A DNA stretch of 64,000 nt from Candidatus Nanosyncoccus sp. (GCA_045530815.1 JAZSCU010000024.1:65-64064), one strand, 5' to 3'; numbered from the stretch's first letter, positions 42,003 through 62,072 are shown. Notes: generated by a model not told the origin, from the letters alone. Numbers and translations: made by a program.

Positions 42003-42230
42003 ATATTATCCTTATAAGACATTTGTTCGAACAATATTTTACTTCACTTCAATCTATTTTGCAATTAATTTTAGATAAAACAAAAAAATATGAAAAAAAT
42101 GTGGTATATTACGAGGCTAACCAATTGGATATAAGCTATATTAATATATAAAAACGAGAAACAAAGATATCAAATACTTATCCAAGAAAAGTCATTGGGA
42201 CAGGTTGCGATAAAAAAATAAAGATAGGTC

Positions 42231-42450
42231 ATACATAAAAAAACAAAAAGTTTTTTAAGCAAAACTCTTACAAGTTTTAAAAATATAAGACTTCTGATCT
42301 TTTTGTTGCTAATTGTAGTAGCAACCTCTGTTCTTAATTTTGATTCACCAGTATCCGCAAAAAATAGTACTCCTACCCTTGAACTTAGGAGTAGCAGCAT
42401 GTCGGTAAATATCACCCCAAATCTTTCTTCTGGGGTTTTAATAAATCTAC
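42231..42450 (+). pseudogene. 5' remnant of a secreted or surface protein gene
   Basis: Open frame IHKKTKSF..IRLLIFLLLIVVATSVLNFDSPVSAKNSTPTLEL looks like a signal peptide; no ATG; runs into the tRNA-linked element at 42451. Confidence 0.4.
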
Positions 42451-42686
42451 AAGCAAAAGTCTTCCGTCCTCCTTGCTCGAAATATCATGAGCAAACTCCC
42501 TATATTCTCTCGTTTCGTCGTCCGGTCGAACCTACGGTTCTCATCCTACCAGTTTTTATTATAGAAAATACCCGAACAAATGCTCGGGTATTTTCTATGG
42601 CTAGGCTGGCAGGATGACGGCTTCGCTTCGCTACGCCTAGACCTCGCTTCGCTCGGTGCGAACCTACGGTTCTCATCCTACCAGCT
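42451..42686 (-). repeat. tRNA-Gln-linked repeat array (two structured units + hairpin)
   Basis: 18-bp copy of the tRNA 3' end TGGCTAGGCTGGCAGGAT at 42598; 26-bp direct repeat CGAACCTACGGTTCTCATCCTACCAG at 42527 and 42659. Confidence 0.88.
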
Positions 42687-42691
42687 TAAGT

Positions 42692-42739
42692 ATATGAATT
42701 AAAATAAGACTCCTTCGGAGTCTTCTTCTAATTCATATG
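42692..42739 (-). terminator. Hairpin directly after tRNA-Gln
   Basis: ATATGAATT..AAGACTCC-TTCG-GAGTCTT..AATTCATAT. Confidence 0.7.
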
Positions 42740-42812
42740 GCTAGGCTGGCAGGATTCGAACCTGCGAATGACGGGACCAAAACCCGTTGCCTTACCACTT
42801 GGCGACAGCCTA
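42738..42812 (-). tRNA. tRNA-Gln(TTG)
   Basis: TAGGCTG/CAGCCTA acceptor, ACGGG-TTTTGGT-CCCGT, TTCGAAT, GCCA. Confidence 0.96.
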
Positions 42813-61919: not shown

Positions 61920-61954
61920 TGGTGACCTTTGGTAGCGAGTCGCACCGAAGGTCC
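61920..61954 (-). repeat. Degenerate copy of the tRNA-Arg(CCT) 3' half forming a CCA-ended hairpin
   Basis: Minus strand GACCTTCGGTGCGACTCGCTACCAAAGGTC-ACCA versus tRNA GTGCGTTCGACTCGCACCGGGGTCACCA. Confidence 0.7.
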
Positions 61955-61996
61955 GACTCTGGGCTAAAAAAAGCCTACTGGAGGCATTGAATAGTA

Positions 61997-62072
61997 TGGT
62001 GACCCCGGTGCGAGTCGAACGCACAACCTTCTCCTTAGGACGGAGCCGCTCTATCCATTGAGCTACGGAGCC
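61997..62072 (-). tRNA. tRNA-Arg(CCT)
   Basis: GGCTCCG/CGGGGTC acceptor, GCTCC-GTCCTAA-GGAGA, GTGCG-TTCGACT-CGCAC, ACCA. Confidence 0.9.

Follow-up and report, generated by a model that had tools for sequence, protein, structure and literature searches.

The 64,000-nt stretch of Candidatus Nanosyncoccus sp. DNA analysed here (GCA_045530815.1 JAZSCU010000024.1:65-64064, hereafter the window) carries behind its tRNA-Gln gene a tail of small structured units that resemble the RtT RNA family (Rfam RF00391). The locus, surrounded by ftsK, rlmH and tsaD according to open reading frame (ORF) and Pfam scans, is read on the minus strand of the window, and all its coordinates are given accordingly. In this direction the tRNA gene is followed by hairpin T1, unit 1, hairpin T2, unit 2 and a small last hairpin (Table 1). 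A previous reading of this DNA, made from the sequence alone (the sequence-only reading), had described the tail as hairpin, tRNA-like unit, hairpin and second unit, and all these sequence features were present as described. The 26-nt start that it had assigned to both units (CTGGTAGGATGAGAACCGTAGGTTCG) was found exactly twice, at 42684-42659 and 42552-42527, with no match in 100 shuffles. Its second unit does have these 26 nt and the module of the tRNA-Tyr tail, but it is not complete, being truncated at its 3' side near 42450.

Table 1. Features of the tRNA-Gln tail and of its sister element behind tRNA-Tyr.
Feature	Position in the window (nt)	Strand	Basis
tRNA-Gln(UUG) gene, CCA encoded, source of the tail copy	42812..42738	-	ARAGORN; Rfam tRNA, 63.5 bits
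Hairpin T1, intrinsic-terminator-like: stem AAGACTCC/GGAGTCTT and T run, with A/T-rich outer arms TATGAATTA/TAATTCATA	42693..42737	-	sequence, terminator scan, fold
Unit 1, complete, 91 nt: CTGGTAGGATGA - GAACC GTA GGTTC - G - GA/CG-rich payload - TCATCCTGCCAG - CCTAGCCA	42688-42598	-	sequence
Unit 1, 5' arm: TAAGCTG-GTAGG-ATGA	42673..42688	-	sequence, fold, covariation over 51 units
Unit 1, invariant core hairpin P2: GAACC-GTA-GGTTC and G	42659..42672	-	sequence; core in at least 120 genomes
Unit 1, payload of the RtT type proper: CACCGAGCGAAGCGAGG TCTA GGCGTAGCGAAGCGAAGCCG	42618..42658	-	Rfam RtT alignment
Unit 1, 3' arm: TC-ATCCTGCCAGCCTAGCCA	42598..42617	-	exact copy of the tRNA-Gln end
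Hairpin T2, terminator-like: ATAGAAAATACCCG AGCATTTGTT CGGGTATTTTCTAT	42597-42561	-	sequence, fold
Unit 2, 3'-truncated: type A payload (ACCGGACGACGAAACGAGAG - hairpin - CGAGCAAGGAGGACGGAAG - half of the last hairpin) behind arm and core (42552-42527)	42450..42552	-	alignment; covariance model R1, 94.5 bits
Small hairpin past truncated unit 2, weak terminator-like end of the tail region: ACCCCAGAAGAAAGATTTGGGGT	42436-42414	-	sequence, fold
Type A unit behind tRNA-Tyr (11276-11360), past a terminator hairpin (11358-11400)	11402..11530	+	alignment; R1, 151 bits

Unit 1 starts 49 nt past tRNA-Gln on the same strand, with its GGATGAG core 59 nt past the gene, and 42615-42598 repeats the final 18 nt of tRNA-Gln without any change, a copy that spans the middle of the T loop, the T-stem 3' strand, the acceptor 3' strand, the discriminator G and CCA. 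The 12-bp stem (one G.U) that had been claimed to carry this copy is present, and it extends to 16 positions (14 Watson-Crick pairs, one G.U and one A.C) because the upstream TAAGCTG nearly equals the tRNA-Gln 5' acceptor strand TAGGCTG. The 5' arm, whose partner is 42617-42602, consists of the acceptor 5' strand (one G>A), joined directly to the T-stem 5' strand (one C>T), and a 4-nt extension, so the closing helix, with discriminator and CCA behind it, mimics the coaxial acceptor/T-stem 'minihelix'. The description of unit 1 as a CCA-ended tRNA mimic can be kept in this sense, but the CCA is inherited from the gene and not designed. When unit 1 was folded alone the closing stem was formed, at -40.2 kcal/mol and z = -3.8. 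If the tail is folded as a whole, the minimum-energy structure pairs the 3' arm of unit 1 (42598-42617) with the 5' arm of unit 2 (42541-42552), in such a way that the pairing spans T2 and replaces the own 5' arm of unit 1 as partner; in strains that lack unit 1 the tRNA-Gln 3' strand would be the sole possible partner for the arm of unit 2. No cloverleaf was called in the units: ARAGORN found only the eight true tRNAs of the window and Rfam tRNA seven, and neither tRNA nor tmRNA models matched the units.

The core inside this helix is also related to the tRNA. Except for GA in place of TC, P2 and the upstream GGATGA read as the reverse complement of the universal T-arm sequence GGTTCGAATCC, and arm plus core together are the reverse complement of tRNA positions 52-72 (rc(GGTTCGAATCCTGCCAGCCTA) = TAGGCTGGCAGGATTCGAACC, compared with TAAGCTGGTAGGATGAGAACC in unit 1). 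That the core is complementary to the universal T-loop sequence, but for GA instead of UC, accounts for its strong conservation. In complete units it is nearly invariant (GGAUGA-GAACC-NNA-GGUUC-G). The payload, structured and lineage-specific, branches off inside the sense copy, between GGUUCG(A) and (A)AUCC. That of unit 1 shares GAGCGAAGCGAG with the E. coli rtT consensus in the Rfam alignment, and nearly identical payloads are found at three other loci (L023, L099 and L055; loci are cited by number). Two other readings of the core were rejected: a K-turn formed by AUGA, hairpin and GA, the core positions of which are not conserved, and a second T arm formed by P2 and the 3' arm, as the NN in the loop of P2 fails to follow the tRNA T stem (L012, L006).

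The pairing between arm and tRNA was analysed over 51 non-redundant units, with shuffles and a slid partner as controls. The 5' arm covaries with the adjacent tRNA. Paired cells amounted to 76.5%, against 68.0% in the shuffles and 29-50% when the partner was slid, and the covariation score was 0.248, against 0.109 for the shuffles (none of 500 reached 0.248) and at most 0.112 with the slid partner. Each of the three pairs adjoining the core was represented by 4-6 pair types.

RtT, an RNA from the 178-bp repeats behind tyrT and tyrV of E. coli, has been known for as long as the tyrT sequence, and the RefSeq annotation of this species lists rttR among the small RNAs. In a permissive Rfam scan, unit 1 aligned with the full RtT model (positions 1-130) with 37.4 bits and E 2e-6, the gathering cut-off of the family being 45 bits. 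The counterpart of unit 1 in the related Saccharibacteria locus L023, nearly identical in sequence, reached 48.5 bits and passed this cut-off, and RtT was also called in Rahnella (72-75 bits) and in several gammaproteobacterial genomes (48-50 bits). The agreement between unit 1 and RtT is one of sequence, beyond shape, as it includes GGAUGAGAACC..AGGUUCG..CGAGCGAAGCGAG and the tRNA 3' end; the core GGAUGAGAA(C/G)C..GGUUCGA and the motif GAGCG.AGCGAG are common to unit 1, the RtT consensus and the units of E. coli K-12. The E. coli tyrT/tyrV repeat unit is made of a 5' arm complementary to the tRNA-Tyr 3' end, GGATGAGAAGC..AAGGTTCGA, GAGCG..AGCGAGAG, hairpins and AATCCTTCCCCCACCACCA, the same order of parts as in unit 1. 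The combination that defines RtT, a tRNA 3' copy with a complementary 5' arm, is present in unit 1, absent from unit 2, which is truncated, and partly present in the tRNA-Tyr unit. Judged by this homology, unit 1 is a member of the RtT family, though just below the Rfam cut-off. Unit 2 and the tRNA-Tyr unit were undetected by Rfam RtT, and a further locus with the same type A payload (L045) likewise gave no match; the type A units are a divergent RtT variant, invisible to Rfam. A blastn search of the tail against E. coli genomes gave no match, the sequences being too diverged for BLAST.

A scan of genomes with the 20-nt core GGATGAGAACCNNAGGTTCG gave at least 120 loci, in at least 120 genomes of many phyla; the counts in this paragraph are among the matches listed. 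Bacterial loci belong to Pseudomonadota, Gemmatimonadota, Verrucomicrobiota, Bacteroidota, Paenibacillus, Clostridia, Saccharibacteria, Peribacteria and Uhrbacteria, and archaeal ones to Thermoplasmata. A tRNA on the same strand ends upstream of the core, at a median of 53 nt, in 85 of about 132 core instances, with 14 amino-acid identities represented among these tRNAs. The spacer between tRNA and core contains a T run in 72 of the 85, and in 62 of them the first 400 nt or so beyond the core contain a repeat (one mismatch at most) of the T-stem/acceptor 3' strand of the tRNA, typically at about 65-135 nt; around 8 core instances look like chance matches within genes. Nearly all of the loci listed share this arrangement. 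Three Thermoplasmata archaea (L065, L067, L078) have the bacterial-type core 29-35 nt behind tRNA-Arg(GCG), followed in L067 by a copy of the 3' part of this tRNA, and these archaeal cores suggest either cross-domain transfer or a very old origin. As for viral contigs, one scan was empty and the other gave one true match at a prophage end and one chance match in a gene. The constant 5' handle of the sequence-only reading is therefore constant indeed, but it is no property of this array: it is the conserved core of the RtT family across many phyla.

The module of unit 2 also lies behind tRNA-Tyr, as had been claimed, with an alignment base for base to the tRNA-Tyr tail at 11402-11530. The similarity of unit 2 to complete units stops after ..GGAAGACTTTTGCTTG, at about 42450, in such a way that it is devoid of the 3' strand of the last hairpin, of the tRNA 3' copy and of CCA, and when folded alone it folds poorly (z = -1.7). 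The tRNA-Tyr unit begins 42 nt past its tRNA, shows a variant core (GGTCGCGAACCGCAGGTTCG, with GGTCGCG), and its 3' arm goes down to CCTACT, with only the T-stem 3' strand and no CCA. Both are decaying copies, and unit 1 is intact. A Verrucomicrobiota contig labelled Akkermansia muciniphila (L071, 5798-6030) shows behind tRNA-Ser(CGA) a complete unit that ends in the tRNA 3' copy, and then a second, truncated unit with the same arm and core as the first, a layout like that of the window. The succession of a complete and a truncated unit may be a recurring pattern.

Three payload types were seen in Saccharibacteria. The RtT type is found in unit 1, L023 and L099 behind tRNA-Gln and in L055 behind tRNA-Arg. 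Type A is found in unit 2, the tRNA-Tyr unit, L014 and L024 (Ser(GGA)), L086 (Ser(CGA)), L045 and L091 (Gln) and L108 (Asn), and type B in L019 and L072 (Gln), L042, L115 and L116 (Val), L113 and L117 (Ser) and L064 (Ile), so that all three occur behind tRNA-Gln in related species. Given this spread over types and tRNAs, payloads and arm pairs combine freely. The proposal of exchangeable payloads was right in that the units are modular and differ in payload, but it fell short in that the arms are exchanged too, a single payload type being found behind Ser, Gln, Asn and Tyr tRNAs with matching arms. In the RNAalifold fold, type A is a four-way junction of closing helix, core hairpin, a long arm whose GA-rich internal loops (GACGACGAAGCGAG / GAGCGAGGAGGAAC) are invariant and whose tip is variable, and a last hairpin. 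Compensatory changes were detected in 17 of its 42 predicted pairs, and hairpin tips differ in sequence yet pair. A covariance model built from the type A module (R1) matched just three places in the window, the tRNA-Tyr unit, unit 2 and unit 1 (39.3 bits, E 3e-9), and also, with lower scores, the units of most other loci, which makes of them one superfamily. That the type A module could be a gene fragment or protein-coding (it reads PDDEAREYRELAHDI..) was ruled out because of the compensatory changes; its relatives keep the hairpins despite changed sequences and lengths, and the ORF has no Pfam match.

Behind tRNA genes that encode CCA, 44 of 50 3' copies have it, and behind genes without CCA, 11 of 12 copies do not; some of the latter share the trailer of the gene. 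The 3' arm is thus copied from the gene and not from the mature tRNA, which means that the array was made and reshuffled at the DNA level, and retro-copying of mature tRNA was excluded, as the CCA of the copies follows that of the gene. Such reshuffling was seen between close strains. In three gut metagenomes, contigs join 42595 to 42736, skipping the 140 nt of T1 and unit 1, with 20 nt that fit both sides; the 3' arm of unit 1 is one of the two direct repeats that bound this deletion, and the loss is due to recombination between the two tRNA 3' copies. T1 stands behind tRNA-Gln in L019, L023 and L099 too, its terminator-like centre in the terminator scan being AAGACTCCGAAGGAGTCTT and then ATTTT, and in the strains without unit 1 it is T2 that directly follows the tRNA. 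Two of the runs have other sequence where the window has its tRNA-Tyr tail (11361-11568): in contig L124, the end of tRNA-Tyr is followed by a different terminator and about 150 AT-rich nt devoid of any unit, and the next 5 kb are about 1% divergent from the window. Two other runs contain a contig 100% identical to 11341-11528, 188 nt that comprise the tRNA-Tyr end, the terminator and the type A unit, and that then diverges, and in these runs no contig matches the flanking genes of the window at 92% identity or more. In L045, the terminator that is usual behind tRNA-Gln stands behind the unit instead, as if 3' copy, new terminator and unit had been inserted in the gene. The payload variation between strains on which the sequence-only reading depended was therefore found, both as strains without unit 1 and as a differing tRNA-Tyr tail. 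Its cassette array does not hold if dedicated machinery is meant by it, as no integrase or the like was found at the locus or among the 120 loci listed, and clustering of the neighbouring genes of these loci gave no recurrent protein gene.

Other tRNA genes of the window have tails as well. In the Ser-Pro-Arg tRNA operon, two short tail units lie at 17009-17162 (minus strand), between tRNA-Ser(CGA) (17253..17163) and tRNA-Pro (16970..16895), and the final 22 nt of tRNA-Ser are repeated exactly at the end of each (17103-17084 and 17028-17009), with a small hairpin after them. These mini-units are devoid of the GGATGAGAACC core and start with GGACTCGTT and AAGGTTCGTT, complementary to the T-loop region; the GGACTCGTT type was also found in L064 (Ile) and L066. 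Their copy number varies between strains through 26-nt repeats, with joints 17005>17081 and 17051>17131. Behind tRNA-Arg(CCT) (62072..61997, minus strand), a terminator-like hairpin is followed at about 61920-61955 by a degenerate T arm and 3' end copy (GGACCTTCGGTGCGACTCGCTACCAAAGGTCACCA), which is another decayed tRNA-tail copy. Directly behind tRNA-Arg(GCG) (16867..16791) there is a gene of 348 aa with RhuM and Fic/DOC domains (15718-16764, minus strand; Pfam 3e-23 and 5.5e-11), and no repeat of the 3' end of this tRNA was found in the window. Genes of the RhuM/Fic type are a cargo often carried by integrated elements. Around the tRNA-Gln tail itself, an 81-aa hydrophobic ORF lies between the tail and rlmH (42170-42415, minus strand), without Pfam match, and it is probably not a gene because the strains in X1-X3 have a 7-nt deletion at 42238, inside the ORF. 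The FtsK proteins of L023 and L019 share 77-79% identity with that of the window, and the window sequence is present in sheep and cattle gut metagenomes; from both data, the window comes from a ruminant-gut Saccharibacterium.

We consider it rather probable that the region is a short array of RtT-type tRNA-tail elements whose read-through RNA would be processed into a mimic of the top half of the tRNA. The units would be built, trimmed and swapped by ordinary recombination, with the repeated tRNA 3' ends or the 20-nt cores as partners and no dedicated enzyme. The units would be transcribed by read-through from the tRNA promoter; those that lie inside tRNA operons (L013 and the Ser-Pro-Arg operon of the window) must consequently be co-transcribed. 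By analogy with E. coli rtT, the enzymes that mature tRNA ends may act on the minihelix mimic, set its ends and release a stable small RNA; a 1991 paper on E. coli rtT reportedly described such a release by tRNA end-processing enzymes. As a guess, this RNA could behave as a mimic of the top half of its cognate tRNA toward a factor that reads tRNA ends, candidates being RNase P, the 3' trimming and CCA-adding enzymes, EF-Tu and RelA on the ribosome.

Several data weigh against this scheme. The score of unit 1 falls short of the Rfam cut-off, although the shortfall is one of degree because the nearly identical unit of L023 passes it. The RNA runs that hold window sequence cover the tRNA only and not the units, one metatranscriptome contig and one cDNA-library contig (over the tRNA-Tyr unit) do overlap units but could be DNA, and a search of RNA data with the Akkermansia-labelled locus gave tRNA-word matches only. 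Transcription of the units may be low because a terminator-like hairpin stands between the tRNA and each of them. The two outermost acceptor positions are mostly unpaired, in such a way that the outer closing helix is often open, and many units are truncated, two features that fit neutral or selfish DNA as well as functional RNA. In the variable part of the closing helix, G.U was not favoured over A.C (43 against 61), and strand-specific selection at the RNA level is for this reason not demonstrated. Moreover, the mode of action of rtT was still called unknown in a 2024 preprint (10.1101/2024.07.17.603846).

The main rival reading, doubtful in our opinion but one to be taken seriously, takes the units for selfish, protein-less cassettes of DNA that have no RNA function for the host and whose hairpins matter as DNA or not at all. 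The tRNA 3' end that they carry would lead to homologous insertion beside the same tRNA in another genome, where the cassette would persist by restoring the tRNA gene and bringing its own terminator. The strain data described above speak for it, as units are present, absent or replaced between close strains and an identical cassette occurs in runs without contigs matching the flanks of the window, and so do the terminator order of L045, expected from insertion into the gene, the frequent truncated or decayed copies, the lack of preference for G.U over A.C, and the copying from the gene. Against these data stand the conservation of the core across phyla, archaea included, the constant orientation with respect to the tRNA, and the accumulation of E. 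coli rtT as RNA according to its annotation. So do the compensatory changes of the payload hairpins and a 5' arm that tracks the tRNA, which need selection on the fold, whereas an insertion driven by plain homology does not.

Three further explanations are unlikely. Islands or prophages integrated at the T loop of the tRNA and later deleted could have left attL/attR remnants, which we regard as improbable: the repeats do run from the T loop to the gene end, as with T-loop-targeting integrases, a prophage end in L002 has a tRNA fragment and then the core, the RhuM/Fic gene adjoins tRNA-Arg(GCG) in the window, and tRNA gene fragments from element integration are common (PMC9897764), but just around 140 nt separate the repeats and are occupied by a conserved structured module, no integrase or recurrent protein gene adjoins the units at this locus or in the 120 loci listed, the 50,697 phage records gave no match except a Salmonella chromosomal contig annotated as RtT RNA, and the complementary 5' arm and the invariant core would be left unexplained. 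A small basic peptide started at the ATG of GGATGAG, comparable to the 29-aa 'protamine-like' Tpr that the annotation of the E. coli repeat contains, seems very improbable. A 58-aa ORF (42676..42500) exists and E. coli tpr starts at the same core ATG; nevertheless, the ORF crosses the T2 terminator hairpin into unit 2 and has no Pfam match, the tRNA-Tyr unit has no ATG (GGTCGCG), the payloads of the relatives change length and frame and keep the pairing, and the bases ahead of the ATG belong to the tRNA-specific arm, which leaves no ribosome-binding site. Just as little credit is given to a self-cleaving ribozyme of the hammerhead kind cutting just before the tRNA 3' copy, in spite of a topology like that of type I (closing stem, xGGAUGA, hairpin, GA, further stems and back to the closing stem), of a GAUGA-stem-GA similar to the stem II junction, and of a U followed by C or A that often precedes AUCC. 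The core of the units, xGGAUGA ... G(A/U/G)N, does not agree with the hammerhead CUGANGA ... GAAA and NUH cleavage site, conservation is lacking where the hammerhead has C3, U4 and A14 (the units have G at 4 and any base at 14), pairing with the GA of AUGA accounts for the U(C/A) ahead of AUCC, and no Rfam ribozyme family matched, even with E up to 10.

Returning to the units as RtT-type elements, this design extends to a minimal-genome episymbiont (Saccharibacteria), to other tRNAs, to re-tailored arms and to three or more types of payload. Beyond what the E. coli case alone had given, the element can now be defined in minimal terms (minihelix mimic, core antisense to the T loop, and payload), the natural variants separate conserved from dispensable parts, and the strains show that units are rapidly gained, lost and exchanged at the tRNA 3' repeats. 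If the RNA is functional, the units would be a widespread mimic of tRNA ends; if it is not, they would be DNA that uses tRNA genes as landing pads. For annotation, their partial tRNA copies can pass for attachment sites or pseudogenes. As a tentative extension, it is possible that RtT-like units are pan-prokaryotic, modular and protein-less cassettes, composed of an arm pair specific to the tRNA, the invariant core antisense to the T loop and a payload that can be interchanged, that spread through tRNA 3' ends and yield RNAs mimicking the top half of the cognate tRNA, which, if true, would reveal a general and overlooked layer of tRNA-linked RNA biology, beyond an enterobacterial curiosity.

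Among known systems, the closest is RtT itself. The units of the window and those of E. coli sit 3' of a tRNA gene on the same strand and form tandem arrays, each complete unit ending with the last 19 nt or so of that tRNA and having a 5' arm complementary to this copy, the core GGAUGAGAAC..GGUUCGA and the motif GAGCG.AGCGAG. They differ in that the window units follow two Saccharibacterium tRNAs, tRNA-Gln and tRNA-Tyr, to which their arms are fitted, in the shorter unit 1 (91 nt, under the cut-off), in the type A payload of unit 2 and of the tRNA-Tyr unit, missed by Rfam, in the heterogeneity of the array, compared with near-identical repeats, and in the terminator hairpin ahead of each unit.

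The tRNA fragments of attL/attR sites are also direct repeats of the 3' part of a tRNA gene from the T loop, and derive from DNA; by contrast, the window has no integrase or island, and the interval between its repeats is a conserved structured module of around 90-130 nt with an arm complementary to the repeat. In the tRNA-like domain of tmRNA, the YrlA Y RNAs and the 3' tRNA-like structures of plant viruses, a terminal helix mimics the stacked acceptor and T stems and is followed by single-stranded NCCA, on an unrelated body. By analogy, the closing helix and NCCA end of the units on an unrelated structured body would be comparable, but the units have core and payload instead of a T loop, and they mimic a specific neighbouring tRNA. 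Finally, the arrays recall those of integron cassettes, by analogy only, in having a conserved recombination-prone end, variable content and differences between strains, whereas the units have no integrase, attI/attC or genes, and recombine apparently through plain repeats.

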